Of a DNA stretch of 64,000 bases, positions 7,088-47,748 are shown one piece after another. Origin of the DNA: an uncultured bacterium (GTDB lineage Bacteria > Eisenbacteria > RBG-16-71-46); assembly GCA_964418975.1 (NCBI GenBank), contig CAYQNV010000172.1, positions 24,301 to 88,300 on the forward strand, in the 5' to 3' direction. The first letter of the stretch is position 1; every line of letters starts with the position of its first letter. The notes under the pieces were generated by a model. The model saw nothing but the letters and a program-made list of their open reading frames with translations. It searched no databases and was not told where the DNA came from. Made by a program: the position numbers and the translations under genes.

Positions 7088-7163
<76 letters not shown>

Positions 7164-23418: not shown

Positions 23419-24735
23419 CTAGGCGAACTTCCCTGCCTCGAACTCCGTCGAAGGCTGAGGCGCGCGACAGGTCAGGGGCCCGGGGATTCCGGCATTCACC
23501 TCTCTGCGCGCGCCCTTTGGCGCCAGCCTCCTGAGTGCGAACTTGACCCGCTCCTCGAGCGACCCGTCAGGGATCGACTCATCACAGAGCGCCGCCGCAC
23601 GACGCGCCTCGTCGGCCTTGAGCCCCAGCGCCCGCAGCCACGGGGTCACGTCTTGCTCGTCTCTCGGATCCTCCGCGGCTTCCGGCCGCATACGGGCCCC
23701 GACTGCCGCACGCGTTTGCTCCGTCCTGCACCTCGCTTCTTCTCGCTTGTGGCGCATGAACTCGGTCCCGTACGTTTGCTCGGCCGTGTACTGGTTGTGA
23801 GCGCGACACCGGAGCCTTATCCCGTCCGTCGTAGCCTGGCCGCCGCGCGCCACCGCTTCGACGTGATCGAATTCCAAGCGTGTGCGCGCCGAGCACCGGT
23901 GTCCGCGATCACTTTCGAACGTGCACTGGCCGCCATCGCGCTGCCAGACCTTGCGCCGGACGTGGGCAGGGACATGGCGCTCGTTCTTGGACCGTCGCCG
24001 CGGGCGCGGGCGGGAGGTGGCGGCACACTTGCGCTTCTCGAGCTGGGCGAGCAGGGCATCGAGGGCGCGGTCGAGCACCTCGGCGACGTCTCCGGAAGGG
24101 ACCGCGTGCCCGAGCAACTCTTGGGCGCGGCGAAGTTTGTCGTGCGTGCCTTGTCCGATGGTCAGCTGAAGTGCGAACCGCTCCGGCGACAGCGGCGTGA
24201 CCCTCGCCCGCGGGGCGGGAGGCTCAACATGCCCCGGGGCATGCTCGGCGGATCCTTCAACATGCCCTGGGGCATGTTCGTCGGTGAGCCGCGGGGGTGC
24301 GATCGGCTGAAGCCGGCTCGGCAGGTCGGGCCGCGGGAAGCGCTGTGCGAGCAGCACCTCGATCTCAGCCTTGGTCCGGTGTGCGGCCGCCGCCAGAAGC
24401 TCCTCGGCGGTCTCCTCGGTGAGGTGCGGTGCCAGCAGGACGACGGCACTCAGGTGCAACCGGCCGTCGGCCAGTGCCGGGAAGATGACAGGGAACTGGC
24501 TTGCTGCGCGCGCCGCGTGGATGCGCTTGGAAGCCGCGTCCTCGGAAAGATGCAGCTCGCCCACGCACCAGGCGTGCATCGACGGATAGGCCGCCGGCAG
24601 GTAGAGCTTGCGCGCGTCCACTTCGGCGAGGTGGGCCAGCAAGGTGGCGGTGGTGGTGCGTTCCTGGTGGAGGAGCGCGTTCAGGTCACGCAACAGCACA
24701 TGGTCCGCGAGATGCGACAGCGAGTAACGCCTCAT
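23419..24735 (-). CDS. DUF222 / HNH endonuclease domain protein.
   Basis: HNH core ..CTFESDRGHRCSARTRLEFDHVEAVARGG..HNQY. Start MRRYSLSHLADH.. is an internal Met of ORF 23419..24837. Confidence 0.7.
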   Translation of the reverse strand: MRRYSLSHLADHVLLRDLNALLHQERTTTATLLAHLAEVDARKLYLPAAYPSMHAWCVGELHLSEDAASKRIHAARAASQFPVIFPALADGRLHLSAVVLLAPHLTEETAEELLAAAAHRTKAEIEVLLAQRFPRPDLPSRLQPIAPPRLTDEHAPGHVEGSAEHAPGHVEPPAPRARVTPLSPERFALQLTIGQGTHDKLRRAQELLGHAVPSGDVAEVLDRALDALLAQLEKRKCAATSRPRPRRRSKNERHVPAHVRRKVWQRDGGQCTFESDRGHRCSARTRLEFDHVEAVARGGQATTDGIRLRCRAHNQYTAEQTYGTEFMRHKREEARCRTEQTRAAVGARMRPEAAEDPRDEQDVTPWLRALGLKADEARRAAALCDESIPDGSLEERVKFALRRLAPKGARREVNAGIPGPLTCRAPQPSTEFEAGKFA

Positions 24736-25287
24736 GGTGGGACTCCGCGATAGAGACGAATCGCGGGGGCAGCACAATTCATAACATGCGTGTTCGCGGC
24801 GCTCGGAGAGCCACGGAGTGCGCGAAACGTGCCGCACGACGAGAACTTTCTCGGCGAAGCAGCTTGCAGGACGTCAGCAAGAACTCTCGACACGCTGGTA
24901 CGCGACCAGCGCAGGAGCCGCGCTGCGCGGGAGGCAAGCTCCGATTTCCTGTCCAACGAATTCGTCGCGTTCGATTCGAATTTCGTTCGCATCGCGACCG
25001 GCCGCTCGCCGCGGGCCGAGCGCAGCGCCCGCCCCCTCCGACTGTCCGTTTGTGGGACGCCCGGTCCCACGGCCGAACAGCTCCGGCTCGTGCCCGCGGC
25101 TGGGACGCAAGCACAACTCGTGACCGCACAACGGATTCGCGATCGGCTCGGCGTGGCCCGGTTCTTCCTTATGCGCTTCGCTGGTCTTCCGACCGGAATC
25201 GGGTTCACGCGCCGGACCCGCTCGCGCTGCGGCAGCTCGCGAGCGAGGCCGGCGCATCCGCAATCGAACGTCTGCGTAAAGGACGAG

Positions 25288-26529
25288 ATGGATATCCCGC
25301 GCCAGAAGCCCAAGGTGAATCGAGTTCCGTGGGTGATCGCCACCGCACTGCTGGTGGTGGTGACCACGGTGGGGCTCGCGCGCCTGCGGCCGGCGGCACC
25401 CACAGTGGAGAAAGGCACGCTGTGGATCGACACCGTGAAGCAGGGCGAGATGCTGCGGCAGGTGCGCGGCAACGGCACGCTCGTGCCCGAGGACCTGCGC
25501 GTGGTCTCAGCACTCACCGCCGGGCGCATTGACCGCGTGCTCGTGCGCCCCGGTGCCCGCTGCGAAGTGGGCACGGTGCTGCTCGAGATGAGCAATCCGG
25601 ACGTGCAGCTTCAAGCCCTCGACGCCGAACGCCAGGTGAAGGTGGCCGAGGCCGATCTCGCGTCGCTGCGTTCCTCACTCCAGGGGCAGCGCCTGGCCGC
25701 GGTCTCGAGCGTGGCCGAGGCGCGGCGCGCGGCGAAGGAGGCCGAGCGCGCGGTCAAGGTGGCCGAGCGGCTGGCGAGCGAAGGGCTCACGTCGAGCATG
25801 GAGATCGACCGCGCACAGGACAACCTGGTCGAGGCGCGCGAGCGGCACGACAGCGAGAAGGAGCGCCTGGCGCTGCTCGCTGAATCGCTCACCGCGCAGC
25901 TGGCGCTCCGCCAGGCAGAGGTCGAGCGCCTGCGCGCCATCGCGCGCTTCCAGTTCGAACGGGTGGCGTCCATGACGGTGCGCGCGGGGCAGAAGGGTGT
26001 GCTGCAGTCGCTGTCACTCCAGCCCGGCCAGTGGGTCAACCCGGGGCAGGAGCTGGCGCGCGTGGCGGGGCAGGACCGACTGAAGGCGGTGGTGCGCGTG
26101 CCCGAGACGCAGGCGCGCGACCTGGCATTGGGGCTATTGGCCGACGTGGACACGCGCAACGGCATCGTCAAGGGACACGTGGCGCGTGTGGATCCGGGTG
26201 CGCAGAACGGCACCGTCTCGGTGGACGTGGCGCTCGACGGCGCGCTGCCGCGCGGCGCGCGCCCCGACCTGTCCGTGGACGCCACCATCGAGATCGAGCG
26301 GCTCGCGAACGCCATCTACGTGGGCCGTCCGGCCGACGGTTCGAGCGAGTCCACCGTGGGCCTGTTCGTGCTCGACGTCGATGGCCGGCACGCGAATCGC
26401 GTGCAGGTGGAACTGGGCCGCGGCTCGGTCAACGCGATCGAGGTGCGCAAGGGCTTGAAACCCGGCGACCGGGTCATCCTTTCTGAGATGACGCGCTGGG
26501 ATGCCGTGGATCGAGTGAAGCTGCAGTGA
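25288..26529 (+). CDS. Efflux periplasmic adaptor subunit (HlyD/MacA family).
   Basis: N-terminal TM, long coiled-coil (..AEADLASLRSSLQGQRLAAV..) and beta-barrel domains. First gene of the ABC cluster. Confidence 0.75.
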   Translation: MDIPRQKPKVNRVPWVIATALLVVVTTVGLARLRPAAPTVEKGTLWIDTVKQGEMLRQVRGNGTLVPEDLRVVSALTAGRIDRVLVRPGARCEVGTVLLEMSNPDVQLQALDAERQVKVAEADLASLRSSLQGQRLAAVSSVAEARRAAKEAERAVKVAERLASEGLTSSMEIDRAQDNLVEARERHDSEKERLALLAESLTAQLALRQAEVERLRAIARFQFERVASMTVRAGQKGVLQSLSLQPGQWVNPGQELARVAGQDRLKAVVRVPETQARDLALGLLADVDTRNGIVKGHVARVDPGAQNGTVSVDVALDGALPRGARPDLSVDATIEIERLANAIYVGRPADGSSESTVGLFVLDVDGRHANRVQVELGRGSVNAIEVRKGLKPGDRVILSEMTRWDAVDRVKLQ

Positions 26530-26564
26530 ACGCCCACGACTGAACGGGCAGGGGAGACACGACG

Positions 26565-28985
26565 ATGGACGTGCTCATCCAAGACTTGCGCTACGCGTTC
26601 CGCTCGCTGCGCCGCGCGCCGGGCTACACGGCAGTGATCGTCGCGGTCATGGCGCTCGGCATCGGCGTGAACGTCTTGACTTTCAACTTGCTCTACGCGA
26701 TCGAGTTCCGGCCGTGGCCGCTGCCCGAGGCCGAGCGCGTGGTCTACGTCGGCATGACCGAGCCGAAGCACGCCACCGAGCGGGGCGGGCTGTCGTGGCA
26801 GAACTACCAAGACCTGCGCGAACGCACCCAGTCGTTCAGCTCGTTCGGCGCCTACTGGGAGCATGTCGCCGTCGTGACGCTCGACCGTGAGCCCGAACGC
26901 CTGTTCGGGGTGAGTCTCACCGCCGACGTGTTCCCTGCACTCGGGGTGCGTCCCGCAATGGGGCGCGGCTTCACGCATGACGAGGAGGTGTGGGGCCGCA
27001 ACTGGAACCAGGTCATGATCAGCGATCACATCTGGCGCGATCGCCTCAAGTCCGACGCCAACGTGCTCGGTCGCACGATTCGGTTGAACGGCCGTGTGCG
27101 CACGATCGTGGGCGTCATGCCGCCCAAGTTCCGCTGGCCGGAGATCGAGGACTTCTGGATCCCCGCCGGTTTCAACGCCGCCGAGGATCGCCGCTCGGGC
27201 CAATCGCTGCAGGGCATCGCGCGGCTCAAGCCCGGGGTCACCATGAAGCAGGCCAACGCCGAGGTGGACGCGGCCGTACGCGCACTCGGCGGCCAGTACC
27301 CAGAAGTCAAGGACTTCGGCGGGCACGTCGACGGCATGCAGGAGCGGTGGAGAAGCGGCGCACGCCCGGTCATGACCGTCATGCTGCTCGCCGCGATGTT
27401 CGTGCTGCTCATCGCGTGCGCGAACGTCGCCAACTTGGCACTCGCCCGCGCGAGCGCGCGCCGGCGTGAGATCGGGCTGCGCCTGGCCCTCGGCGCGTCG
27501 CGCGGCCGCATCATCCGCCAATTGCTCACTGAAAGCGTGCTCGTGTCGCTCGCCGGCGGCATGCTGGGGGTGTGGCTCGGCGCCTGGGGCAATACGCTCG
27601 TCATGCAGTCGGTCCCAGGCGAGATACCGTTCTTCATCTCGTTCGCGCTCGGCGCTCCGGTGCTGCTGTATTCCGCCGGGCTCACCGTGCTCGCCGGCAT
27701 CCTGTTCGGGCTTGCACCCGCGCTGCAAGGCGCCGACGGGCGGCTCTCCGACGCGCTGCGCGAGGGCAGCGCGCAGGCCGGCACTTCGCTCAAGACAGGC
27801 CGGCTGCGGAGCGGGCTGGTGATCGCGGAGGTCGCGTTCTCGCTGGTCCTGCTCATCGGTGCCGGTCTCATGATCCGCACGTTCGTGACCCTCGATGGCG
27901 CCGGTCGCGCCATCGACGCCGACGCCGTTATCACCGGGCGTCTGCTCGTGCCGGAGGCGACCTATCCCACCGACGAGGACCGACGCCGGTTCTCTCGCGC
28001 CCTGCTCGCACGCCTGGAGGCCGAGCCAGCGGTCATCTCGGCGAGCGGCATGAGCAACCTACCGCTCGGGCTCCTTACTTCGAGCCGTCTCGTCCTCACG
28101 CCACAGCTGAAGGATCCGCAGCACGATGGGCTCAATACGAGCGTCGCACGGGTGCTGCCGGGCTCCCTCGAGATGTTGAGTGTTCCGCTGCGCCGGGGCC
28201 GGATGATCACCGCGTCCGACGACGAGCGCGCGACGCGCGTGGCGCTCGTCAGCGAGACGTTCGCCCGGCGGCTGTTCAAGCAGGCCGATCCGATCGGCCG
28301 CCAGATCCGCTTCGCGGGCGAGCCGGATTCCATGGGCTGGCGAACCATCGTCGGCGTCGTCGGTGACGTCGCCCAGAACGTCGATCTCGGCTTCGCAGGG
28401 GACCCGATGAGCGCGGTCTACGTGGTCGAATACCAAGAGCCCGGCGAGCGGTTGAGCATTCTGGTGAAGACACGTGGCGACGGATCGGCCGGAGCGGCAG
28501 CTTTCCGCCGGGCAGTGCGCGCGGTGGACGCCGACATCCCCGTCGAGAACCTGAGATCGCTGCGCGAGCAGTTCCGCGTCGCCTTGTGGGTGCGACGGCT
28601 TTTCGCCTCGATGATCGGCGCGTTCGGCGCGATGGCGCTCGTCATCGCCGCCGTCGGACTGTACGGCGTGATGGCGTACTCGGTGTCGCAGCGCACCAAG
28701 GAGATCGGCATCCGCATGGCGTTCGGCGCAGGGGCGGCGACCGTTCAGCAGATGGTCGTCGGGCAAGCGTTCCGGCTGACGCTCATCGGCATCGGCATCG
28801 GGCTCGTGGGTGCGCTGCTGCTCACGCGCGGCATGACCGCCGTGCTCCAGGGCGTGAGTCCGACCGATCCACCGACCTACGTGATCGTGACGGTGCTGCT
28901 CGCGCTCTCCGGCCTGATCGCCGCGTGGGTGCCGGCACTGCGGGCGACGCGCGTGGATCCGATGGTCGCATTGAGATGTGAATAA
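26565..28985 (+). CDS. ABC transporter permease, ADOP family (duplicated FtsX/MacB-type permease).
   Basis: 806 aa. N terminus MDVLIQDLRYAFRSLRRAPGYT. Two FtsX 4-TM modules, each after a MacB-like periplasmic domain. Confidence 0.85.
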   Translation: MDVLIQDLRYAFRSLRRAPGYTAVIVAVMALGIGVNVLTFNLLYAIEFRPWPLPEAERVVYVGMTEPKHATERGGLSWQNYQDLRERTQSFSSFGAYWEHVAVVTLDREPERLFGVSLTADVFPALGVRPAMGRGFTHDEEVWGRNWNQVMISDHIWRDRLKSDANVLGRTIRLNGRVRTIVGVMPPKFRWPEIEDFWIPAGFNAAEDRRSGQSLQGIARLKPGVTMKQANAEVDAAVRALGGQYPEVKDFGGHVDGMQERWRSGARPVMTVMLLAAMFVLLIACANVANLALARASARRREIGLRLALGASRGRIIRQLLTESVLVSLAGGMLGVWLGAWGNTLVMQSVPGEIPFFISFALGAPVLLYSAGLTVLAGILFGLAPALQGADGRLSDALREGSAQAGTSLKTGRLRSGLVIAEVAFSLVLLIGAGLMIRTFVTLDGAGRAIDADAVITGRLLVPEATYPTDEDRRRFSRALLARLEAEPAVISASGMSNLPLGLLTSSRLVLTPQLKDPQHDGLNTSVARVLPGSLEMLSVPLRRGRMITASDDERATRVALVSETFARRLFKQADPIGRQIRFAGEPDSMGWRTIVGVVGDVAQNVDLGFAGDPMSAVYVVEYQEPGERLSILVKTRGDGSAGAAAFRRAVRAVDADIPVENLRSLREQFRVALWVRRLFASMIGAFGAMALVIAAVGLYGVMAYSVSQRTKEIGIRMAFGAGAATVQQMVVGQAFRLTLIGIGIGLVGALLLTRGMTAVLQGVSPTDPPTYVIVTVLLALSGLIAAWVPALRATRVDPMVALRCE

Positions 28986-29115
28986 CGGCGAGAACGCCGC
29001 GGCGGTGCAACGGGTTGAAACCCGACGGGCGGGTGAGCCTGTCGGAGAGGTCGAGATGGAATTCCTTGGACCGAATGAAGCTGCAGCGAACGTATCGCTC
29101 CCCTCTGGAGGAAGC

Positions 29116-29859
29116 ATGTCCGTCATGACGAACGAACGAGTGGCCCCGAACGGCACCACCCAGGGCGAGCCGGGACGTGCGCTGCTGCGGCTCGACGAGG
29201 TGAAGAAGGTGTTCTACACCGACGAAGTGGAGACGCACGCGCTGTCAGGCGTGCACATGGAGATCCAGCGCGGTGAGTACGTGTCCATCTCGGGACCGTC
29301 GGGCTGCGGCAAGTCCACACTGCTCTCGATCCTCGGCCTGCTCGACACCGCCACCGACGGCCAGTACTGGCTCGACGGCAAGCCGGTGCAGAGCCTGGGC
29401 TTCACCGAGCGCGCGCGCATCCGCAATCGCGAGATCGGCTTCATCTTCCAGAGCTTCAACCTGATCGGCGACCTGTCGGTGTACGAGAACGTGGAGCTGC
29501 CGCTCACCTACCGCGGCATGGCCACGACCGAGCGCAAGCGCCGCGTGGGCGAGGCGCTCGAGCGCGTGAGCATGGCGCATCGCTCGAAGCACCTGCCGAG
29601 CCAGCTCTCGGGCGGCCAGCAGCAGCGTGTCGCCGTCGCGCGCGCGCTCGCCGGGGACCCGCTCATCCTGCTCGCGGACGAGCCCACCGGAAACCTCGAC
29701 TCCACGAACGGCGAGGCCGTCATGGAGCTGCTGCGCGATCTGCACCAGCAGGGCAGCACCATCTGCATGGTCACGCACGACACGAGGTTCTCGAAGTACG
29801 CGCAGCGCACCATCCAGCTGTTCGACGGCCGCGTCGTCGACGAGAAGCGCGGGCACTGA
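29116..29859 (+). CDS. ABC transporter ATP-binding protein (MacB/LolD type).
   Basis: Walker A GPSGCGKST, signature LSGGQQQR, Walker [12 protein letters not shown]. Confidence 0.85.
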   Translation: MSVMTNERVAPNGTTQGEPGRALLRLDEVKKVFYTDEVETHALSGVHMEIQRGEYVSISGPSGCGKSTLLSILGLLDTATDGQYWLDGKPVQSLGFTERARIRNREIGFIFQSFNLIGDLSVYENVELPLTYRGMATTERKRRVGEALERVSMAHRSKHLPSQLSGGQQQRVAVARALAGDPLILLADEPTGNLDSTNGEAVMELLRDLHQQGSTICMVTHDTRFSKYAQRTIQLFDGRVVDEKRGH

Positions 29860-29863
29860 GGCC

Positions 29864-32299
29864 ATGTCGTTCGGGGGAATCCTCTCAGACGTGCGGCTCG
29901 CCGTGCGCGCGCTGCGCCGTCAGCCGTTGTTCGCGCTGGTCGCGGTGCTCTCGCTGGCGGTGGCGATCGGCGCGAACGCCACCATCTTCGGCTTGGTGGA
30001 CGCGGTGTTGTTCCGCCCGCTCCCCGGCGAGCGCTCAACGCCGCTCGTGAGTGTGTTCACGAGCGAGTCGGACGGCAATGGTTTTGGGGTGAACTCGTAC
30101 CCCGCCTACCTGGACCTGCGCGCCCACAAGGACGTGTTCACGCACGTCGCGGCCTCGGCGATCACGCCACTGCTGCTCACGGAAGGGGACCGGAGCGAAC
30201 GCGTGCTCGGCATGCTGGTGAGCGGCGACTGGTTCTCCACGCTCGGGCTGCGTGCGGCGCACGGGCGGTTGGTCGGACCAGCGGACGACCGCACCGCCGG
30301 CGAGTCCCCGGTCGTGGTGTTGTCGGACGGCTTCTGGCGGCGGCGCTTCGGCGCCGATCCGGCCGTGGTGGGTCGCACGATCCGGATGAACGGCCACCCG
30401 TGGACCGTGGTGGGTGTTCTGCCGCCATCGTTCCGGGGCGTGTTCATGGGGATCACGCCGGACGCCTGCGTCCCGACCCGGATGGAGGCGTGGGCCCAGC
30501 CCGGGCGCGGCGAGACGACGAATCGCGGCGGACGCAGTTTCTCGGTGGTCGGTCGGCTCGCCGACGGCATGAACTTGAAGCAGGCGCAGCAGCGCCTCGA
30601 CGCGCTCGCCGCCCAGCTCGGCCGCGAGCACCCCGCCAGCGACAGCGGTCGCGCCTTCAGCATCCTGCGTGAGGAGGACGGACGGCCGTTTCCCCAAGTG
30701 CACTCCATGGTCGTCATGTTCATGGGCATGCTCCAGGCCATCACTGGCCTCGTGCTGGTGATCGCCTGCGTGAACCTGGCCGGCCTGCTACTCGCGCGCG
30801 GCAGCGAGCGACGCCGCGAGATCGGCGTGCGACTGGCGCTGGGCGCCTCGCGCGCGCGGCTGGTGCGCATGCTCGTCTCGGAGAGCTTGCTGCTCGGCGT
30901 GCTGGGAGGCGGGCTCGGCCTGGGACTCGCCGCGCTCGGCACTCGCCTGCTGGCGATGTTCCAGCCGCCGCTCCCGGTGCCGATCACGTTCGACTTCCAG
31001 CCGGATGGCCGCGTGGCGCTGTTCGCGATGCTGCTCGGTATCGCGGCGGCGCTGGTGTTCTCGCTCGTGCCCGCTTGGCAGACGGTGTCGCCTTCGCTCG
31101 CGGGCCCGCTTCGCGACGACGGCGGCGTGCGCCGCTCGCGCCTGCGCGGCTTCCTCATGGTGACGCAGCTCGCGCTCTCGCTTCTCCTGCTCGCCGGCGC
31201 CGGGCTGTTCATGCGCGCGCTCGCCCGTGCGCAAACGCTCGATCCGGGATTTGACCCACGCGGTGTCACGAGCGTGGCATTCGACCCGAGCTTGAGCGGC
31301 TACGACCTGCCGCGCACGCGCGCGTTCTACACCCGGCTGCTCCAGGAAGTCCGCGCGTTGCCCGGCGTCACGTCCGCCACGTTGGCGGAGCACGTGCCCT
31401 TGGCCCTCGGCTGGTCCGAGGCGGGCATGTGGCTTCCCGGCCGCACGGGTGCCGAACGCGAGCGTGCGATCGACATGCCGGTGAACGCGGTGAGCGAGGG
31501 GTACTTCGCCACACTTCGCATTGCCATCGTGCGCGGGCGCGAGCTGCGCACGTCGCAGCCGAGCGGCGAGGTCATGGTGAACGAGACGTTCGCGCGCCGG
31601 TTCTGGCCCGGCCAGGACCCACTCGGCAAGCAGGTGGGCCTCGAAGGCCCGGACGGCCCGTGGCGCACGGTGGTCGGCGTGGCCGCCGACTCGCGCTACC
31701 GGAGCGTGGCCGAGACACCGCGCCCATTTCTGTACGTGGCGGCGGACCACGACGGTGATGACGATGCCACGCTGCTTGTGCGCGCGTCCGGCCCCACGGC
31801 GGGCATGGTGCCGACGCTTCGCGCACTCGTCCGCAGCGTGGCGCCCGACCTGGCACCAGAACAGCCCGAGCTACTCGAGAGTCAGCTCGGCGCGTCGCTC
31901 CTGCCCGGGCGGCTGGCGGGTGGCGTGCTCGCGGCGACCGGCGCCGTGGCGCTGCTGCTCGCCTGCCTCGGCCTGTACGCCGTCGTGGCGTACTCGGTGA
32001 GCCGACGCACCAAGGAGTTCGGCGTGCGCATCGCGCTGGGCGCGCTGCCGCGCGACATCCTCTCGCTGGTCATGTCGGAAGGTTCGCGACTGCTCGCCTG
32101 GGGGCTCGGCATCGGGCTCGTGCTGGCGCTCGCGGCCGGCTTCGCGCTCCGGGGGCTGCTCTACGGGCTCTCGCCGCTCGACCTGCCCGCCTATCTCGTC
32201 GTGCTGGTACTGCTCGGCGTCACGTCGCTCGTGGCTTGTTGGCTCCCCGCCCGCCGCGCCACAACGGTGAACCCCGTGATCGCGCTGCGACACGACTAG
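29864..32299 (+). CDS. ABC transporter permease, ADOP family (paralog 2).
   Basis: 811 aa with the same duplicated FtsX architecture. ATG at 29864 inside ORF 29627..32299. Confidence 0.85.
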   Translation: MSFGGILSDVRLAVRALRRQPLFALVAVLSLAVAIGANATIFGLVDAVLFRPLPGERSTPLVSVFTSESDGNGFGVNSYPAYLDLRAHKDVFTHVAASAITPLLLTEGDRSERVLGMLVSGDWFSTLGLRAAHGRLVGPADDRTAGESPVVVLSDGFWRRRFGADPAVVGRTIRMNGHPWTVVGVLPPSFRGVFMGITPDACVPTRMEAWAQPGRGETTNRGGRSFSVVGRLADGMNLKQAQQRLDALAAQLGREHPASDSGRAFSILREEDGRPFPQVHSMVVMFMGMLQAITGLVLVIACVNLAGLLLARGSERRREIGVRLALGASRARLVRMLVSESLLLGVLGGGLGLGLAALGTRLLAMFQPPLPVPITFDFQPDGRVALFAMLLGIAAALVFSLVPAWQTVSPSLAGPLRDDGGVRRSRLRGFLMVTQLALSLLLLAGAGLFMRALARAQTLDPGFDPRGVTSVAFDPSLSGYDLPRTRAFYTRLLQEVRALPGVTSATLAEHVPLALGWSEAGMWLPGRTGAERERAIDMPVNAVSEGYFATLRIAIVRGRELRTSQPSGEVMVNETFARRFWPGQDPLGKQVGLEGPDGPWRTVVGVAADSRYRSVAETPRPFLYVAADHDGDDDATLLVRASGPTAGMVPTLRALVRSVAPDLAPEQPELLESQLGASLLPGRLAGGVLAATGAVALLLACLGLYAVVAYSVSRRTKEFGVRIALGALPRDILSLVMSEGSRLLAWGLGIGLVLALAAGFALRGLLYGLSPLDLPAYLVVLVLLGVTSLVACWLPARRATTVNPVIALRHD

Positions 32300-32307
32300 G
32301 AGACGTG

Positions 32308-34719
<2,412 letters not shown>

Positions 34720-34729
34720 GAGATCGTTC

Positions 34730-37156
34730 ATGGACATCCTGCTCCAGGATCTGCGCTTCGCCTTTCGCTCGCTGCGGCGCTCGCTCGGTTTCACCACCGT
34801 GGTGGTGGCGGTGTTGGCTCTGGGCATCGGCGTCAACACCATGATCTTCAGCATGGTGTACGGCATCATGCTGCGCCCCTGGCCACTGCCCGGCTTTGAA
34901 CGAGTCATGACCGTGACCGAGAGCAACAAGCTGAAGGACGTGAAGCACGACGGCGTGTCGTGGCTCAACTACCAGGACCTGCGCGATCGGTCCAAGTCGT
35001 TCGAGGTGGTCGCCGGTTTCTGGGACATCGGTGGCCAGGTCACGATCGGCGACGAACCCGAGCGGATGGAAGCGGCGAATATCACCTCGGGCCTGCTGCC
35101 GGCGCTCGGCGTGCAACCACAGCTTGGTCGCAACTTCACGCGCGACGAAGAGGTCTACGGCCAGAACTGGGGCCCGGCCCTGATCAGCGATCGCATCTGG
35201 AAGCGACGCTTCGGCGGCACACCGGACGTGCTCGGGAAGACGTTCAAGCTGAACGGCCGCGTGCGCACCATCGTCGGCGTCATGCCGCCGCGATTCCAGT
35301 GGCCCGAGGTCGAGGACTTCTGGATCCCCGCCGCGATCTCACCCGAGGACGCGCGTGCGCGCACCGACCACAACCTGCAACTCGTGGCGCGCTTGAAGCC
35401 CGGCGTGACGCGGCAGCAGGCGCAGGCCGAAGTGGCCGGTATCTACCAGCAGATCGTGGCGTCGGACCCGGAGAACCTGAAGGGCTGGACGGCCACCGTG
35501 ATGGCATTTGCCGACGAATGGCGACGCGGCATCCGCACCATGATGATCATCATGTCGCTCGCGGTGGGCTTCGTGCTGTTGATCGCATGCGCCAACGTGG
35601 CGAACCTCATGCTCGCCCGCGCCGCCGCTCGCAAGCGCGAGATCAGCGTGCGGCTGGCGCTCGGCGCCTCGCGAGGACGCGTGGTGCGCCAGTTGCTCAC
35701 CGAGAGCCTGCTGCTGTCGCTCACCGGTGCCGGCATCGGCGCCGCGCTGGCGGTGGTGGGCAATCGGCTGTGGGTCGGCATGATCCCGCTCGAGCTGCCG
35801 TTCTGGTTGAAGTTCCAGATCGATCTTCCCGTGCTCGCGTTCACGGTGATGATCTCGATGTTGAGCGCATTGGTGTTCGGGCTGATTCCCGCCATGCAGG
35901 CGTCCGACACGCGGCTGTCCGAAGCGATCCGCGAGGGCAGCGCCCAGGCCGGGAGCGGTCGTGGCCGCGGGCGCGCGCGCAGCGCACTGGTCGTGGCGGA
36001 AGTGGCGCTCTCGCTCACGCTGCTCGTGGCGTCCGGGCTCATGATCCGCAGCCTGTACGCGATGATGGACAGCGAGAAGCTCGTGCGCTCCGAAGGGGTG
36101 TTTACCGCACGCTTCCTGCTGCCCATCGCCACCTGGCCGAGCGACTCGGCCCGCCGCGAGTTCTGCGACCGGGTCTATCCGCTGGCGCAGGCCCTGCCGG
36201 GCGTCGAGTCCGCCTCGATCGTGACCATGCTGCCGCTCAATCGCGGCGACTGGACCGCTCGCGTGGTGGGCGAGACCGGTGCGCGCACCGATCCCGAGCG
36301 CCCCGCGCGCGTGAACTACGCCGAATGCTACCCGGGCTACTTCGCCACACTCGGCATCCCCTTGCGCTCCGGCCGCGACTTCACGTTCTCGGACGGTCCC
36401 GGCGGCGAATCGGTAGTGATCGTGAACTCCGCCATGGCCAAGCTGCTCTGGCCCGGCAAGGATCCGCTTGGGATGCGCGTGAAGCCCGTGAACGACGAAC
36501 GCAAGCTGGGCTGGCGCACGGTCGTGGGCGTGGTCGCCGACGTGCCGCAGAACCTCGAGGACACCGACGAGCGCGTGGACGCGACGCTGTTCGTGCCGCA
36601 CCGGCAGGAACCGGACCAGTCGCTCACCTGGGTGGTGCGCACGAAAGGCGACCCGCTGGCGCTGACCGGTGTGATGCGACAGTTCATGCGCTCGCAGGCG
36701 CCGGACGTGCCGCTCACCGACGCGCGCTCGATGCACCAGGCGGTGGAATTCGCGGTGTGGACGCACCGGTTGTTCGGCTCGCTCATGGCGCTGTTCGCCG
36801 TTCTCGCGCTGATCATCGCGGCCGTCGGCCTTTACGGCGTTATGGCCTACTCGGTGGCGCAGCGCACCCAGGAGATCGGCATCCGCATGGCGCTCGGGGC
36901 CCAGGCGCGCGACGTGGTGGGCCTGGTCGTGGGACAGGCGCTCCGGCTCACGCTGATCGGCACGGGCATCGGTTTCGCCGCGGCGTATGCGCTTACGCGC
37001 TTCATGACCAGCGTGCTGTTCGGCGTGTCGCCCACCGACCCGCCCACCTACCTGGGCGTGGTGCTCATCCTGGCGCTGTCGTCGGTGCTGGCGGCCTGGG
37101 TGCCCGCACACCGCGCGACGCGCGTGGACCCGATGAGCGCGCTGCGCTGCGATTGA
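34730..37156 (+). CDS. ABC transporter permease, ADOP family (paralog 4).
   Basis: N terminus MDILLQDLRFAFRSLRRSLGF. 808 aa duplicated FtsX. Confidence 0.85.
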   Translation: MDILLQDLRFAFRSLRRSLGFTTVVVAVLALGIGVNTMIFSMVYGIMLRPWPLPGFERVMTVTESNKLKDVKHDGVSWLNYQDLRDRSKSFEVVAGFWDIGGQVTIGDEPERMEAANITSGLLPALGVQPQLGRNFTRDEEVYGQNWGPALISDRIWKRRFGGTPDVLGKTFKLNGRVRTIVGVMPPRFQWPEVEDFWIPAAISPEDARARTDHNLQLVARLKPGVTRQQAQAEVAGIYQQIVASDPENLKGWTATVMAFADEWRRGIRTMMIIMSLAVGFVLLIACANVANLMLARAAARKREISVRLALGASRGRVVRQLLTESLLLSLTGAGIGAALAVVGNRLWVGMIPLELPFWLKFQIDLPVLAFTVMISMLSALVFGLIPAMQASDTRLSEAIREGSAQAGSGRGRGRARSALVVAEVALSLTLLVASGLMIRSLYAMMDSEKLVRSEGVFTARFLLPIATWPSDSARREFCDRVYPLAQALPGVESASIVTMLPLNRGDWTARVVGETGARTDPERPARVNYAECYPGYFATLGIPLRSGRDFTFSDGPGGESVVIVNSAMAKLLWPGKDPLGMRVKPVNDERKLGWRTVVGVVADVPQNLEDTDERVDATLFVPHRQEPDQSLTWVVRTKGDPLALTGVMRQFMRSQAPDVPLTDARSMHQAVEFAVWTHRLFGSLMALFAVLALIIAAVGLYGVMAYSVAQRTQEIGIRMALGAQARDVVGLVVGQALRLTLIGTGIGFAAAYALTRFMTSVLFGVSPTDPPTYLGVVLILALSSVLAAWVPAHRATRVDPMSALRCD

Positions 37157-37169
37157 GGCGGTAACCGCA

Positions 37170-38276
37170 ATGTTCCCCGTGGAACGAGCCGCGATGGACT
37201 CGCGAATGAAGTCGATCTCGTACACACTGATCGCGCTCTCGGTGCTGCTCGCGGCAGATCCCGCCGTGGCCACCGAGGACGTGCGCCAGCTGTTCGATCG
37301 CGGCCAGCTCCGCCGCGCGGCCACCGCCTGCGAGCAGCGACTGGCGGCGAATCCCGCAGACGCCGCGGCCGGAGAAGTGCTGTCGCGGATCCGCGGAGAG
37401 CAGAAGGATCTCGAAGGCGCCCTCCGTCTGGCCACCACCGCCGCAGCCGCCGATCCGAAGAGCGCCAATGCACAGTACGCATTGGCGGAAGCCTACGGCC
37501 GCTTGGCGCGCGAGGCCGGCATGCTCAAGGCCGCAGGGCTCGCGGGCAAGATGCGAAAGGCCGCGGACGCAGCACTCGCGCTGGACCCAAAGCACGTGGA
37601 CGCGCTCGAGATCCTGGTGGACTTCCACCGCATGGCGCCCGGCATCATGGGCGGCGACAAGAAGAAGGCGGCCGGCTTCCTCGAGCGCATCGTGCAGGCG
37701 AATCCCGCCGTCGGTTGGATCAAGCGCGGCCAGACGGCGCTCCAGGACAAGGACACGACGCTCGCGGCTAGGTGCTTCGCGAACGCGCTGGAGCGTGACC
37801 CGGCTTCGGGTCGCGCGAGGGTGCAGCTGGCGTTCTGGCTCGCACCGCGCTGGCGTGACCCGGCGCGTGCCGAGAAGCTCGCCCTCCAGGCGGTCGAGGC
37901 CGAGCCATGGCGCACGGGCGGCTGGCAGGTGCTGGCCGCGCTCTATGCGTTCCAGCAGCGCTGGGCGGAGCTCGAGTCCGCATTGCAACGCTCGGAGGCC
38001 GCGGAACCCACGCACTTGGCGCCGTGGTTCCAGGCGGGCCGCCAGCTGGTGTCGGACCACAAGGAGGCGGCGCGCGCCGAGGGATACCTGCGGCGCTACC
38101 TGTCGCGCGAGCCCGAGATCGGCGCACCGTCCGTGGCGGCGGCTCGCTGGCGACTGGGCCAGGCGCTGGAACAGCAAGGGCGCAAAGCCGAGGCCACGTC
38201 CGAGATCGCGCAGGCCGTGAAGCTCGACCCCAAGCTCGAGGATGCGAAGAAAGACCTGAAGCGCCTGCGCGGTTGA
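37170..38276 (+). CDS. Secreted tetratricopeptide-repeat protein.
   Basis: Signal peptide from internal Met (MKSISYTLIALSVLLAADPAVA) and several TPR-like helical pairs. Lies between ADOP4 and the second ATPase. Confidence 0.6.
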   Translation: MFPVERAAMDSRMKSISYTLIALSVLLAADPAVATEDVRQLFDRGQLRRAATACEQRLAANPADAAAGEVLSRIRGEQKDLEGALRLATTAAAADPKSANAQYALAEAYGRLAREAGMLKAAGLAGKMRKAADAALALDPKHVDALEILVDFHRMAPGIMGGDKKKAAGFLERIVQANPAVGWIKRGQTALQDKDTTLAARCFANALERDPASGRARVQLAFWLAPRWRDPARAEKLALQAVEAEPWRTGGWQVLAALYAFQQRWAELESALQRSEAAEPTHLAPWFQAGRQLVSDHKEAARAEGYLRRYLSREPEIGAPSVAAARWRLGQALEQQGRKAEATSEIAQAVKLDPKLEDAKKDLKRLRG

Positions 38277-38312
38277 GCGCGCACACATCTGCGGTCCAGA
38301 GAGGAGTGCTCC

Positions 38313-39056
38313 ATGGAGACATCACCTTCCGCGCTCGCGCGCGGAGCTTCTACCGAGGACCGCGAGCCGCTGGTGCGGCTGCGCGGCGTTGAGAAGGGCT
38401 TCGACCACGGCGCCGGCCGGTTCCACGTGCTACGGCGTATCGACCTCGACGTACGCCCCGGTGAGTTCGTGTCCGTGATGGGCCCGTCGGGAGCGGGCAA
38501 GTCCACGCTGCTCCAGTTGCTCGGACTTCAGGATTCGGACTGGACGGGGGAATACCAATTGGACGGCGCCGCCGTGGGCCCGCTGGACGCCAAGGCGCGC
38601 GCCCGACTTCGCAACGAGACCGTCGGGTTCGTGTTCCAGAGCTATCACCTGTTGGACGAGCTCACCGTGGCCGAGAACCTCGATGTGCCGTTGTCGTATC
38701 GCGACGTGAAGAAGGCCGAGCGCGAGTCGCTCGTGGCCGAGAGCCTCGACCGCTTCGGGCTTGCCGCGCGTGCGAAGCTCTATCCGCGCCAGCTCTCGGG
38801 TGGCCAGCAGCAGCTCGTGGGCATCGCGCGCGCGCTCGTGGCCAAGCCGCGCTTGCTGCTCGCGGACGAGCCCACAGGGAACCTGCACTCCGAGCAGGCG
38901 CACGAGATCATGCGACTCTTCCAGTCGGTGAACGCCACGGGCACCACCATCGTGCAGGTCACGCACTCCGAGGAGAACGCCCGCTACGGCCGGCGGATCG
39001 TGCGCATGCGCGATGGTTGGATCGACAGCGACGAGCCGCAGACGGCCAGGAGTTGA
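38313..39056 (+). CDS. ABC transporter ATP-binding protein (MacB/LolD type, second copy).
   Basis: Walker [39 protein letters not shown] upstream. Confidence 0.85.
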
Positions 39057-39182
39057 GCGCCGCGGACCGCCCAGGCCGCTTCCTGTCAACTCAGTGACCC
39101 CAGCCCGGGCGCAGGTCTGCTAGGATTTTCGTCGTTCCGCGTCGGGCCCGCCCGGCGCACAGGCAGGAGCCCTGGAGGCCTC

Positions 39183-39698
39183 ATGCCCACGTTCCCCGCA
39201 CGCTTCGCTCGCACGACACTCGCCGTTCTGGTCGCGGCGGGAGGCTGGGTCGTGGCCATGGCCGGGACGTCGCGAAGCGAGGCCGCGAGCCTGCCGGAGG
39301 TGACACCGGCACCGAGTTCCTCGCGCTTCACCTGAGAGCCCATCCGGGTCCCGTCGGGACCCATCACGGATTCCGAGTTCGCGCTCTACCACCTGCAGCG
39401 CGCGCTCTACGACCCCGTCGACCCACGCCTGCTCGGCTCGCTCAGCCCGGACTTCCATTTCCGCGTGAACGGCGAGGTCTACCGGTTCGCGGGCGAGAAG
39501 ACGCTACGCCGGTTCATGGAGGAGCCCGAACTTTGGTGCGGGCTGTTGCGCGATCCCGTGAACGGCGAGCGATTCCTGCCCTCGACGCGCTCGCCGCGGC
39601 TCTACTTCATCGGCGGCCCCTACTACTTCAGCAGCGACTCCACGCGCGACCGGTTCCTGGACGACCCGCTCCGGTTCGAGGTGAAGCGGGCGATATAG
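39183..39698 (+). other. Candidate secreted protein whose 50-codon signal-peptide ORF is joined in frame to ORF 39336..39698 through one TGA (39333..39335). It could be a selenoprotein, a readthrough gene or a pseudogene.
   Basis: ATG 39183 with RBS GGAGG. Signal peptide MPTFPARFARTTLAVLVAAGGWVVAMAGTS. The TGA is in the same frame as the downstream ORF, which has no ATG (first GTG at 39465). Hairpin GGGTCCC-GTC-GGGACCC lies 10 nt after the TGA. Confidence 0.3.
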
Positions 39699-39722: not shown

Positions 39723-40634
39723 GTGGGCCCGGCGACGCGCCGGCCGGAGGCCGGCAACATGAAAAGTGCCGGAGGCCGGCAACAGACGGATGTCGTCATG
39801 CTAATGTCGCCGCCCATGACCACTCCCTCGCGCTACGTGCACGGCACGCACCCCGAGGAGCAACGCCGCCTCGCGGACCTGAACGTCCTCGTCAACCAAG
39901 CCTCGCTCGAAGCTCTGAAGCCGCTTCGGGGTGAGCGCGCACTCGAAGTGGGCAGCGGGCTCGGGCAGTTCGCGCGCGCGCTCGCACACGCAACGGGCGA
40001 GCGCGTGGTGGCGGTCGAGCGCAGTCCCGAGCAACTGGCTCGCGCGGTGGCACTGGCCGCCGACGCGAGCGAGGGCGCGCTCGTGGACTTCCGTTCTGGC
40101 GACGCGCTCGACCTGCCGCTCGCGGCCAATGAGTGGGGCGCGTTCGATCTGGCGCACGCGCGCTTCCTGCTCGAGCATGTGCCCGCGCCGCAGCAAGTGG
40201 TGAACGCGATGGCGCGCGCAGTTCGCCCGGGGGGCCGTGTCGTGCTCGAGGATGATGACCACGAGGCGCTGCGGCTATGGCCCGAGCCGCCCGGCCTGAA
40301 CGTCGTGTGGCGCGCCTACATTCGCACTTACGACCGGCTGGGCAATGACCCCTACGTCGGCCGTCGCCTGGTGGAGCTGCTGGTGAACGCTGGGCTCGTG
40401 CCCAGGCGCATCGCCATGCCGCTGTTTGGCGCGTGCGCGGGCGAGCCGGAGTTCCCGGCCTACGTGGCGAACCTGGGTGCGATCTTCGACGGCGCGCGCG
40501 ACGCGATCCTCGCCACCGGTGGCGTGAGCGCCGCGGCGTTCGCTGACGCCCAGGCCGCGCTCATTACGTGGGGCGAGCGGCGCGATGCGGTGTTCTGGTA
40601 CGCCGTGCGCTGGGCCCAGGCGGTGAAACCGTGA
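39723..40634 (+). CDS. Class I SAM-dependent methyltransferase.
   Basis: Motif I ..ALEVGSGLGQFARALA.., motif ..RPGGRVVLED. Start uncertain; a Met near 39798 is possible. Confidence 0.65.
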   Translation: MGPATRRPEAGNMKSAGGRQQTDVVMLMSPPMTTPSRYVHGTHPEEQRRLADLNVLVNQASLEALKPLRGERALEVGSGLGQFARALAHATGERVVAVERSPEQLARAVALAADASEGALVDFRSGDALDLPLAANEWGAFDLAHARFLLEHVPAPQQVVNAMARAVRPGGRVVLEDDDHEALRLWPEPPGLNVVWRAYIRTYDRLGNDPYVGRRLVELLVNAGLVPRRIAMPLFGACAGEPEFPAYVANLGAIFDGARDAILATGGVSAAAFADAQAALITWGERRDAVFWYAVRWAQAVKP

Positions 40635-42052
40635 GCGACGAGCCCGACCCGGACCCGGACCCGCATTCTGCGGGTGCCCCGACGGGTGCCCCGGCGGGTG
40701 CGCCGCCTCGCGTGCTGGTCGCAGACGACGACCCCGACGTGCTGGCGGCCCTGAAGCTGCTTCTGCGCGGCGAGCGCTACGAGGTCGAGACCGCCACCTC
40801 GCCGGCGCTCGCGCTGGCGGCGCTCGAATCGCGCGACTTCGACGCGGCATTGCTCGACTTGAACTACGCGCGCGACACCACCAGCGGCCGGGAGGGACTG
40901 GAGCTGGTCGAGCGCCTGCGCGCATTGGACTCCACCCTGCCCGTGGTGGTGATGACCGCGTGGGGCAGTGTCGAGGGCGCGGTGGCTGCCGTAAGGCGTG
41001 GCGCGCGCGACTACGTGCAGAAACCGTGGGACAACGCCCGACTACTTCAGACCTTGCGCACGCAGGTCGAGCTCGGACGGGCGCTGCGCGTGGGACAGCG
41101 CCTCGAGCACGAGAACCGGCTGCTGCGCCGCGAGGGCATGCCGGAGATGATCGCCGACGCTCCGGTCATGCGCCCGGTGCTGGACCTGTTGGCACGCGTG
41201 GGGCCGAGTGACGCCAACGTGCTCGTCACGGGCGAGCATGGCACGGGCAAGGAACTCGTGGCGCGACTGCTGCACGCCAGCTCGCCGCGGGCCGGACGCG
41301 CGCTCGTCACGGTGAACGTGGGCGGACTGGCGGAAGGCGTGTTCGAGAGCGAGCTGTTCGGTCATGTGAAGGGCGCGTTCACGGGCGCCAACGCCGATCG
41401 TGCCGGGCGGTTCGAGCTGGCGGATGGCGGCACACTGTTCCTGGACGAGATCGCGAACGTGCCGCTGGCCCAGCAGGCCCGGCTCCTGCGCGTGCTGCAG
41501 ACGGGCGAGTTTGAACGCGTCGGCAGCTCGCGCACGCGCTCGGTGAGCGTGCGGCTGGTATCCGCCACCAATGCCGATCTTCATGCGGAAGCGGCCGCTG
41601 GCCGCTTCCGGGAAGACCTGTTGTTCCGCATCAACACCGTCGAGGTGCACCTGCCGGCGCTGCGCGAGCGGCGCGAGGACATCCCGGCGCTGGCCGCGCA
41701 CTTCCTGCGGCTGCACGCCCAGCGCTACCGCAAGCCGGTCGAGTCGTTCGATCCCGAAGCGCTGCGCGCGCTGCTCGCTCACCCGTGGCCGGGCAACGTG
41801 CGCGAGCTGGACCACGTGCTCGAGCGCGCCGTGCTCATGGCGCGCGGGGCGGCGCTCGAGGCCGGCGACCTGGGGCTGCGCGTGAGCACGTCGGGCGCCC
41901 CGGCGCTCGAGCAGATGACGCTCGACGAGGTGGAGCGTGTGCTCATCCAGAAGGCGCTCGCGCGGCACAGCGGAAACGTGAGCGACGCGGCGAAGACGCT
42001 GGGACTCTCGCGCAGCGCGCTCTACCGGCGCCTCGAGCGCCACGGCCTGTAG
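40631..42052 (+). CDS. Sigma-54-dependent Fis-family response regulator (NtrC-like).
   Basis: REC domain (..[11 protein letters not shown]..), AAA+ domain with GAFTGA and a C-terminal Fis HTH. GTG start overlaps the upstream stop. Confidence 0.85.
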
Positions 42053-46199: not shown

Positions 46200-46353
46200 A
46201 TTCCGAGGCCGCGTAGGCCGGACTCAGCCAACTCCGGAACGCGCCGTTGTGCGCTGACCGTCAGCAATGAACACTTGACCCACTCCACCCTCGGGCGGAC
46301 GCTCCTTCATCGCTCGGTCCACGGTCCCCATCTCCGCTCAGGAGGGTCGTTCC

Positions 46354-47310: not shown

Positions 47311-47461
47311 TCTGGAGTGACCTGCTGTCAACAACGACCACCTTCGTTCGAGGGGGTGGTCGTCGTGTTTCTGGATCGGAGCGAAGGGCGGCCACCAAGG
47401 CAGGGCGCTTCGACGCCGAGTCACGCTGATATGCGCGGGTTGCTCCCTGAGGAACCGAGTC

Positions 47462-47545
47462 GCATGCGAGCCGATGATGCCGTCGCGCTCGGTGCCTGAG
47501 TCGGCGCCGCGGCTGCTGGCATCGCCGATTCCCGTGTCCACGGAG
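47462..47545 (-). repeat. 84-bp fragment copy (about 88% identity) of the 3' coding region of lipoprotein gene 45174..45809, lying between the NHL paralogs.
   Basis: Aligns to 45253..45336 and would encode ..SVDTGIGDAS.RG..SGTER.G.IGSHA. Confidence 0.55.
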
Positions 47546-47748
47546 CATCGCCTGTAGGGCACCGCCCGATGACGTCCTCTACGAAGGGCACGCGACCTGG
47601 GCGCCGCCGACATGTCTGCCGCGGGACCGGCGCTCCGACCCCGAAAGGTGCATCCGCCGCCGAAAACTCTTGCCTGGTGTCCATCGATACAAGAGGCTCG
47701 TTGGGAGACCGGTGCAAGGCCCACGAGTCCACCGAGGAGGTTTCTTCC

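Follow-up and report, generated by a model that had tools for sequence, protein, structure and literature searches.

Several described transport systems resemble the locus reported here. In MacAB-TolC (PDB 5nik), a homodimer of MacB, an ATPase-permease fusion with four transmembrane (TM) helices per chain, is combined with a membrane-anchored adaptor. E. coli YbbAP-TesA (PDB 9ge6, 9ge7 and 9ge8) is built around YbbP, a pseudo-symmetric fusion of two permease halves that has two periplasmic domains and binds the separate ATPase YbbA via two coupling helices (YbbA:YbbP = 2:1); the complex has one periplasmic partner and works by mechanotransmission (PMC12646458). The darobactin exporter DarBCD is a trans-envelope exporter (PMC8442675). 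It combines a single large FtsX-type permease (777-position model) with an adaptor and a separate ATPase (NF038008, NF038010 and NF038007). The ADOP permeases were first described as an acidobacterial family, "orphan" in the sense that no ABC ATPase gene lies next to the permease gene. Their original name, "acidobacterial duplicated orphan permease", is quoted in a study of Psychroflexus torquis, whose genomic island 43 carries a cluster of ADOP paralogs together with ATP-binding proteins (ten paralogs according to the text, eight ADOP-family genes according to a figure legend; PMC3914696). Here, four ADOP genes are found alongside genes for two ATPases, an adaptor and a tetratricopeptide repeat (TPR) protein in a 13.8-kb block of eight co-directional open reading frames (ORFs; positions 25288-39056, forward strand) within a 64-kb stretch of DNA (hereafter the window; ~70% G+C) on contig CAYQNV010000172.1 of an uncultured bacterium of the Eisenbacteria lineage. 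The reading that we favor, at a probability of roughly 55%, is that this locus of a diderm soil bacterium encodes a tripartite pump of the type VII ABC class that is controlled by a two-component system and can draw on alternative permease modules.

Gene content and order were as given in an earlier, sequence-only description of the locus (the initial annotation). Along the forward strand, ORF calling and translation located the genes for the adaptor (membrane fusion protein; 25288-26529, 413 aa), ADOP1 (26565-28985, 806 aa), ATPase1 (29116-29859, 247 aa), ADOP2 (29864-32299, 811 aa), ADOP3 (32308-34719, 803 aa), ADOP4 (34730-37156, 808 aa), the TPR protein (37170-38276, 368 aa) and ATPase2 (38313-39056, 247 aa). 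For the TPR gene, a start at 37206 is more likely than the one at 37170, as it yields a protein of 356 aa, the size seen in relatives. The spacers measure, in gene order, 35, 130, 4, 8, 10, 13 (49 with the later TPR start) and 36 bp; the range of 5-40 bp originally reported thus describes most of the gaps (4-36 bp) but not the one between ADOP1 and ATPase1. Expression as a single transcription unit, also proposed in the initial annotation, is plausible: the genes are co-directional and mostly separated by short gaps, conserved promoter-like elements are found solely upstream of the adaptor gene, and terminator-like matches occur at the level of shuffled sequence. A scan for sigma-70 promoters and terminators between 24.7 and 43.6 kb gave nothing above shuffled controls. 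The 130-bp gap (28986-29115) is 80% identical to its counterpart in the closest relative, L009; it holds TGGACCGAATGAAGC, with a GG-N10-GC spacing, whose conservation is uninformative with only two close relatives to compare.

All four permeases belong to the ADOP family as defined by the TIGR03434 model ("ADOP family duplicated permease"; cut-off 622.3 bits), which they match over positions 1-803 or 2-803 with scores of 829-903 bits (ADOP1, 834; ADOP2, 829; ADOP3, 892; ADOP4, 903). Each carries two MacB_PCD and two FtsX units in Pfam scans, bearing out the earlier view of the permeases as internal duplications, and local alignments (69-318 residues) of the N-terminal half with the C-terminal half show 26-38% identity. 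The "orphan" trait does not apply here, two ATPase genes and an adaptor gene sharing the operon; orphan status is purely descriptive and is not used by the TIGR03434 model. The lineage, too, is non-acidobacterial, in contrast to what the family name implies. ADOP homologs number at least about 8000 among the matches listed, and those closest to ADOP4 carry the labels Eisenbacteria or Eiseniibacteriota.

The architecture of these proteins was inspected in a model of ADOP4 that AlphaFold2 generated from 48 sequences (pLDDT 85.4). In the model, an N-terminal helix precedes TM1, a mixed alpha/beta periplasmic domain of ~200 residues (59-259), TM2, a coupling helix (302-310), TM3 and TM4; a low-confidence linker then leads into a second copy of the whole four-TM set (4+4), with its own periplasmic domain (457-667) and coupling helix (713-721). 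The predicted TM helices span residues 19-48, 260-300, 315-351, 366-391, 411-451, 668-711, 726-761 and 771-796, and hydropathy analysis agrees with the model in giving a total of eight. The hallmarks of the type VII (MacB) fold, a large periplasmic domain that separates TM1 from TM2 and a coupling helix that joins TM2 to TM3, are both present. When the model was compared with the PDB using Foldseek, the best full-length match was E. coli YbbP (9ge6, E 1.4e-18; also 9ge7), followed by MacB, Spr0695, LolC/E, BceB, YtrF and HrtB; the top 39 matches are all type VII systems. The "MacAB-like" label of the initial annotation is apt in the sense of a MacB-type (type VII ABC) character. In the model, ADOP4 is a pseudo-dimer in which two MacB-type transmembrane units are covalently joined, and from their sequences we infer that the other three ADOPs are fused pseudo-dimers likewise. 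As each ADOP would then supply both halves of a transporter, the presence of four would imply up to four distinct transporters.

The adaptor carries HlyD_3 and HlyD_D23 domains and one N-terminal hydrophobic segment (membrane anchor) and passes the TIGR01730 threshold (106 bits; cut-off 94.9), which places it in the same family as the adaptor of MacAB-TolC. Its match to the DarC model (NF038010) is weak (48 bits; cut-off 450) yet extends end to end; a PDB sequence search with the adaptor gave only a weak match to MexJ. Both ATPases have an ABC_tran domain with intact Walker A, LSGGQ and H-loop motifs, and are 45% identical to each other; ATPase1 is of MacB/LolD/DarD type and ATPase2 of MacB/LolD type. 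Their best NCBIfam matches, all below cut-off, are DarD, the MacB nucleotide-binding domain and LolD, with DarD ranking first for both (263 and 240 bits; cut-off 375). Scores with the remaining curated models also fall short: 84-121 bits for the permeases and 206-218 bits for the ATPases with the MacB equivalog NF007826 (cut-off 966); 18-25 bits for three of the four ADOPs, and no match for ADOP1, with the YbbP equivalog NF041854 (cut-off 999); 19-21 bits with LolC/E (cut-offs 362-540); 217 and 186 bits with LolD (cut-off 308); and 18-19 bits for two ADOPs with DarB (cut-off 700). Since these cut-offs are missed by wide margins, the system is not an equivalog of MacB, YbbP, LolCDE or DarBCD; it belongs to the ADOP family and the type VII ABC superfamily.

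The likeness to the described systems is thus one of parts. With MacAB-TolC, the locus has in common the type VII fold, a membrane-anchored adaptor and MacB-type ATPase sequences, and the permease halves match MacB. Here, however, the halves are fused into chains of eight TM helices, the ATPase is separate, and one adaptor is accompanied by four permeases and two ATPases, with no TolC in the window. A fused double permease with two periplasmic domains and a separate ATPase are likewise features of YbbAP; YbbP, however, has ten TM helices (with an extra TM5-6 linker pair) against eight in ADOP, no adaptor is involved, and the partner is an esterase rather than a TPR protein. DarBCD resembles the present system in its combination of large permease, adaptor and separate ATPase, but it has a single permease, and the radical-SAM and precursor-peptide cluster is missing at the present locus. 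By analogy, the system would work most like MacAB-TolC and DarBCD as regards the adaptor, and most like YbbAP as regards the fused permease and the separate ATPase.

Relatives of the locus were collected with an alignment of the TPR protein's 225 homologs, which was used to scan a single genome from each GTDB species and yielded 80 loci (denoted by L numbers). The window proteins were mapped onto all fetched loci, and called genes were used as well. The closest named loci are from Candidatus Eisenbacteria metagenome-assembled genomes (MAGs); those farther away (35-45% identity) are from Acidobacteriota. The Eisenbacteria-type operon has the layout adaptor-[A1]-ATPase1-[A2]-[A3]-A4-[A5]-[TPR]-[ATPase2], where A1 to A5 denote ADOP orthogroups (see below), and is followed on its 3' side by a small ORF/YHS gene and genes for a methyltransferase, a sigma-54 response regulator and a histidine kinase. 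The number of ADOPs ranges from 1 to at least 5 and their order varies. The locus whose TPR protein is 86% identical to that of the window (L009) is without A2; another (L093) has the order A2-A3-A1-A4; L006 contains at least five ADOPs; L007 has four on the 3' side of ATPase1; and in L015 and L020 one ADOP is accompanied by ATPase1 as the sole ATPase. Wherever the 5' end of a related locus is covered, the adaptor gene is succeeded, either immediately or past ADOP1, by a gene of the ATPase1 type. Mapping of the window proteins gave no ATPase2-type match in L011, L015, L020 or L038, and the minimal make-up of L015 and L020 (adaptor, ATPase1 and one ADOP) indicates that one type of ATPase suffices. 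The genes flanking the locus in the window (DUF4097, ECF sigma factor and carboxyltransferase) are also found in L095, indicative of a stable chromosomal locus.

The initial annotation had presented the ADOP array as unusual, as opposed to a common arrangement of characterised function. It is not unusual: MAGs of the Candidatus Eisenbacteria type share the arrangement, their ADOPs numbering from 1 to at least 5. It is thus common and conserved, although its function is uncharacterised. The P. torquis cluster can be likened to it by description only, as a tandem ADOP array accompanied by ATP-binding transporter proteins; that cluster, however, belongs to a mobile island in a member of the Bacteroidota, and its description mentions neither a TPR protein nor a sigma-54 two-component system or YHS gene. 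The operon studied here is an uncharacterised, lineage-typical variant of a known transporter type.

Pairwise identities among the four ADOPs range between 34% and 50%, ADOP2 being the most divergent (34-35% identical to the other three). When 33 ADOPs, those of the window plus others from related loci, were placed in a neighbour-joining tree, the window's four fell into separate clades, A1 (ADOP1), A2 (ADOP2), A3 (ADOP3) and A4 (ADOP4), all of which include orthologs from other genomes; the tree has two more clades, A5a and A5b, without a member in the window. Identities and tree thus define four ancient paralogs, answering a question that the initial annotation had left to phylogeny, and a recent tandem duplication of the permeases is ruled out. 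Orthologs of ADOP2 are found in L007, L093 and L095, the gene being absent from L009. A4 is the most widely retained orthogroup.

These observations can be accommodated in the following scheme. One ADOP chain would bind two copies of a separate MacB/LolD-type ATPase, as in the YbbA2-YbbP structure; the pair could be an ATPase1 homodimer, ATPase2, or a heterodimer of the two. ATP binding and hydrolysis would be relayed by mechanotransmission to the periplasmic domains of the ADOP, the ADOP-ATPase assembly sitting beneath a single membrane-anchored adaptor, and a periplasmic or outer-leaflet substrate would be expelled via an outer-membrane channel encoded elsewhere in the genome. Use of such a channel is suggested by the presence of a MacA/DarC-like membrane-fusion adaptor. 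The four ADOPs would serve as interchangeable modules that differ in substrate and have one adaptor and one pool of ATPases in common, a notion favored by the fact that ADOP number and order vary among relatives while the adaptor and ATPase1 stay constant. Our best guess is that the substrates are membrane-active or envelope-damaging compounds, or else a secreted peptide or lipid.

The proposed regulation rests on the genes and conserved elements that border the operon. Alignment of the regions 5' of the adaptor gene from seven loci revealed a TGGGA-N7-TCCCA palindrome, invariant in all seven and located 217-237 bp upstream of the adaptor ATG. In the window it reads TGTGGGAC-N5-GTCCCACG (25051-25071, forward strand), and the exact sequence TGGGAC-N5-GTCCCA has this one match in the 64 kb. 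About 93 bp downstream of the palindrome, a sigma-54-like -24/-12 element, TGGC[C/A]CG[C/G]TTCTTC[C/T], is conserved in six of the seven loci (GTGGCCCGGTTCTTCCT in the window; 25153-25169, forward strand). A further conserved box, GGTCTTCCGA, lies near 25193-25202 in the long leader 3' of this element. On the other side of the operon, the product of the gene at 40631-42052 (forward strand) has Response_reg, Sigma54_activat and HTH_8 domains and a GAFTGA motif, and resembles the sigma-54-dependent response regulators ZraR, NtrC and AtoC. It is followed by a histidine kinase gene (42056-43426, forward strand; HATPase_c), whose product shows weak similarity to AtoS and ZraS and has two N-terminal hydrophobic segments (residues 17-35 and 47-65 of the ORF translation). 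With the two TM helices only ~11 residues apart, the kinase would be without a periplasmic sensor domain; this intramembrane-sensing topology is that of kinases using a transporter or an accessory protein as sensor. The two-component genes adjoin the operon in those Eisenbacteria-type loci that extend that far, and two acidobacterial loci link such genes to a TPR gene (ADOP-TPR-regulator-kinase in L087; ATPase-TPR-regulator in L086). A promoter-like element, GTGACC...TCTGCTAGGAT (39094-39126, forward strand), whose CTCTG[C/G]TA and more upstream TGAC recur in eight loci, lies ahead of the small ORF and suggests that the regulatory genes form an operon of their own; in our reading it is of the sigma-70 type. 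The layout matches the classical NtrC-type arrangement, with a palindromic enhancer ~100 bp 5' of a -24/-12 promoter and the activator gene nearby. The palindrome would be the enhancer (upstream activating sequence) bound by the NtrC-type regulator encoded in the adjacent operon, and transcription would start at the sigma-54-like promoter ahead of the adaptor gene upon activation from this site.

A number of observations weigh against the pump proposal or parts of it. The -12 region of the sigma-54-like element is TTCC or TTCT instead of the consensus TTGC, the window copy departing from YTGGCACGrNNNTTGCW at two positions, one of which is the G of the -12 "GC". Moreover, scanning the window with the sigma-54 consensus gave 80 matches, with 74 expected by chance, and no rpoN was seen. 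As the pattern alone is not enriched, assignment of the promoter is provisional and draws its weight from conservation and context. An internal promoter in the gap between ADOP1 and ATPase1 is possible. No OEP/TolC domain was detected among the ~50 window ORFs scanned, in line with what the initial annotation had noted. A PDB sequence search with ADOP returned MacB-type chains only and no solved ADOP, and the one relevant paper found on these proteins gives their role as unknown (PMC3914696). Finally, many acidobacterial ADOPs (for example those of L035 and L067) are without a neighbouring ATPase or adaptor gene, so that the ADOP family as a whole may work not only in tripartite pumps.

Several of the alternatives considered below turn on the TPR protein. 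Its sequence matches TPR families in Pfam and begins with a single hydrophobic, signal-like segment in the hydropathy profile; no lipobox cysteine is found in the N-terminus. The AlphaFold2 model (pLDDT 93.4) is an all-alpha solenoid of twenty helices, without a beta-barrel, and in a fold search against the PDB it matched generic TPR superhelices only, nothing like an outer-membrane channel. The gene lies directly 3' of the last ADOP gene in the Eisenbacteria-type loci that retain it; in L093 and L095 it is reduced to a remnant while the remaining operon is intact. Homologs at ~50% identity, as well as most of the acidobacterial ones, sit in unrelated contexts. In two Acidobacteriota MAGs, PadR, ADOP and TPR genes form a triplet (L035, 6917-10996; L067, 7026-11095), with no ATPase or adaptor gene within 10 kb. 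The ADOPs of these triplets are sister, in the tree, to clade A5b, whose members adjoin the TPR gene in L007, L010 and L018, which hints at an old ADOP-TPR partnership. The TPR family was also considered as an obligate partner of ADOPs, and this was rejected on account of the homologs in unrelated contexts and of the decayed gene in L093 and L095.

The initial annotation had suggested that the secreted TPR protein may stand in for TolC as the pump's outer partner. A signal-like N-terminus, a gene within the operon and the lack of TolC in the window would suit that role, which is nonetheless hardly credible for a confidently modelled all-alpha solenoid with no beta-barrel, no lipobox and only generic fold matches, whose homologs are found in unrelated contexts; since the gene has decayed in two relatives, the protein does not appear to be a TolC substitute. 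We take it to be a dispensable soluble periplasmic accessory and not a channel. A soluble protein could take part in another way, if the ADOPs pulled lipids, lipoproteins or other hydrophobic molecules from the inner membrane and handed them to the TPR protein, as in LolCDE-LolA or YbbAP-TesA, in which case no channel would be needed. YbbP being the closest solved full-length fold, the use of a soluble periplasmic partner by both YbbAP and LolCDE, the position of the TPR gene next to the last ADOP in most Eisenbacteria-type loci, the acidobacterial triplets and the grouping of their ADOPs with the TPR-adjacent ones of L007, L010 and L018 all fit such a hand-off, as does the absence of TolC from the window. 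It is made quite unlikely by the membrane-fusion adaptor that heads the operon in every related locus with a covered 5' end, given that such adaptors typify trans-envelope pumps and that neither LolCDE nor YbbAP has one; loss of the TPR gene from otherwise intact operons, and the fact that most Acidobacteriota TPR homologs are not beside an ADOP, point the same way. The variation in gene content bears on yet another scheme, in which the four ADOPs and two ATPases would form an obligate hetero-complex, either all together or in set pairings such as ADOP1 with ATPase1 and ADOP2-4 with ATPase2. Such an assembly would account for the retention of two distinct ATPases in many loci, for the position of ATPase1 near ADOP1 and of ATPase2 at the operon end, and for the presence of the same four orthogroups in L093. 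It seems very improbable, however, given that the ADOP count goes from 1 to at least 5 with orthogroups that come and go independently, that four loci show no ATPase2-type match, and that a single ADOP already supplies both transporter halves.

The remaining alternative overlaps the pump proposal, from which it differs in the site of signal sensing. In BceAB-BceRS of Firmicutes (PDB 7tcg and 8g4c), a module for sensing and resisting antimicrobial peptides, a type VII transporter is likewise coupled to a kinase that has two TM helices and no extracellular sensor. It is conceivable that the ADOP transporter is the sensor for the intramembrane kinase, as BceAB is for BceS, and that kinase and regulator induce the operon to a degree set by the transport load, conferring resistance to peptide or cell-envelope antibiotics. 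A precedent in its favor is BceAB, a type VII ABC transporter in direct contact with its kinase (PMC12646458). The closely spaced TM helices of the kinase and the missing periplasmic domain also argue for this, as do the linkage of two-component and transporter genes across loci and the appearance of BceB among the structural matches of the ADOP4 model. BceR, however, is an OmpR-type regulator, while the regulator here is an NtrC-type sigma-54 activator. BceB has ten TM helices and one extracellular domain, as opposed to eight and two periplasmic domains in ADOP, and operates with no adaptor in monoderm hosts. In addition, a cytoplasmic region of ~150 residues between the TM helices of the kinase and its DHp domain could sense a cytoplasmic signal. 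On balance, sensing of this type is an unlikely but serious alternative, and an adaptor-based pump with interchangeable ADOPs is preferred.

The first two genes of the downstream operon lie between its presumptive promoter and the regulator gene. The first is a candidate gene for a YHS-domain selenoprotein (39183-39698, forward strand). A 50-codon ORF (39183-39335), encoding a signal peptide followed by ...SLPEVTPAPSSSRFT, ends in TGA (39333-39335) and is in frame with a 120-codon YHS ORF. The residues N-terminal to the TGA are ...SSSRFT; C-terminal to it, EPIRVPSGP... leads into two YHS-like repeats. TGA and frame are kept in 12 loci, with RFT-TGA-[E/V]P..VPSGP[I/V][T/V]D.E[F/W]AL recurring; of these loci, L092 is in an unrelated genomic context and L089 is without the TPR and ATPase2 genes. 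Variable sites 3' of the TGA are distributed 16/10/28 over the three codon positions, and conservation at the protein level extends across the TGA, being evident on its 3' side from the very first codon. A SECIS-like hairpin, GGUCCC-GUC-GGGACC (39347-39361), starts 11 nt past the UGA; Rfam gave no match at this hairpin. Two translationally coupled genes, the small ORF and the YHS ORF, appear less likely than one, as there is no conserved start after the TGA: a start codon is lacking there in the window and in most loci, and the GTG present in L089 and L092 is not conserved. Among 90 database homologs, 89 are fragments of 98-120 aa and one, of 216 aa, matches the C-terminal part only; none of the 90 spans the TGA site or has cysteine there. 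Selenoproteins with a YHS domain have been described before, as a class marked by a GxU motif (PMC13188914, PMC1976440). With the "YHS (seleno)protein" model NF041384, the window protein scores 16.5 bits (cut-off 70). Thus, the gene probably encodes an unannotated exported selenoprotein, of a subfamily other than that of NF041384. It is followed by a gene for an S-adenosylmethionine-dependent methyltransferase (39816-40634, forward strand; 272 aa; Methyltransf_11, Methyltransf_25 and Methyltransf_23 domains), which matches no NCBIfam family at cut-off and is conserved 3' of the YHS gene in relatives. It is tempting to join operon and neighbour into one integrated envelope-stress module of a kind undescribed in diderms, in which the flux through swappable fused permeases would be read Bce-style by the sensor-less kinase driving the sigma-54 activator, and the co-regulated YHS selenoprotein and methyltransferase would handle the same, possibly metal or metalloid, stress; so extended a reading strikes us as improbable.

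Elsewhere in the window, the interval from the ECF-sigma block to the adaptor gene holds genes for a beta-helix (NosD-like) protein (21315-23378, forward strand) and an HNH-motif protein (23419-24837, reverse strand). The syntenic locus L095 has neither at the corresponding position, which gives the segment 21315-24837 the look of an insertion. In L016, L038 and L093, too, the locus is bordered by HNH-like fragments. Two adjacent genes for NHL-repeat beta-propeller proteins (46279-48702) lie in a stretch with a G+C content of ~62-63%, compared with ~70% elsewhere, and a second stretch of lower G+C content, between 10 and 14 kb, has few recognisable genes. At the gathering threshold, Rfam matches nothing in the window but a single tRNA gene (7091-7163, reverse strand).

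The significance of the locus lies mainly in its being an entry point to an abundant, uncharacterised family; it introduces no new principle. The candidate selenoprotein next to it is a lead in its own right and open to direct testing. ADOPs form a very large family in soil bacteria, and the word "orphan" in their name reflects unknown ATPase partners. The Eisenbacteria-type operons put ADOPs beside MacB-type ATPases, an adaptor and a dedicated regulator, and thereby offer concrete partners for reconstitution. They also provide a natural series of one to at least five permeases per pump, in which it can be asked whether permease swapping is a way of diversifying substrate range.

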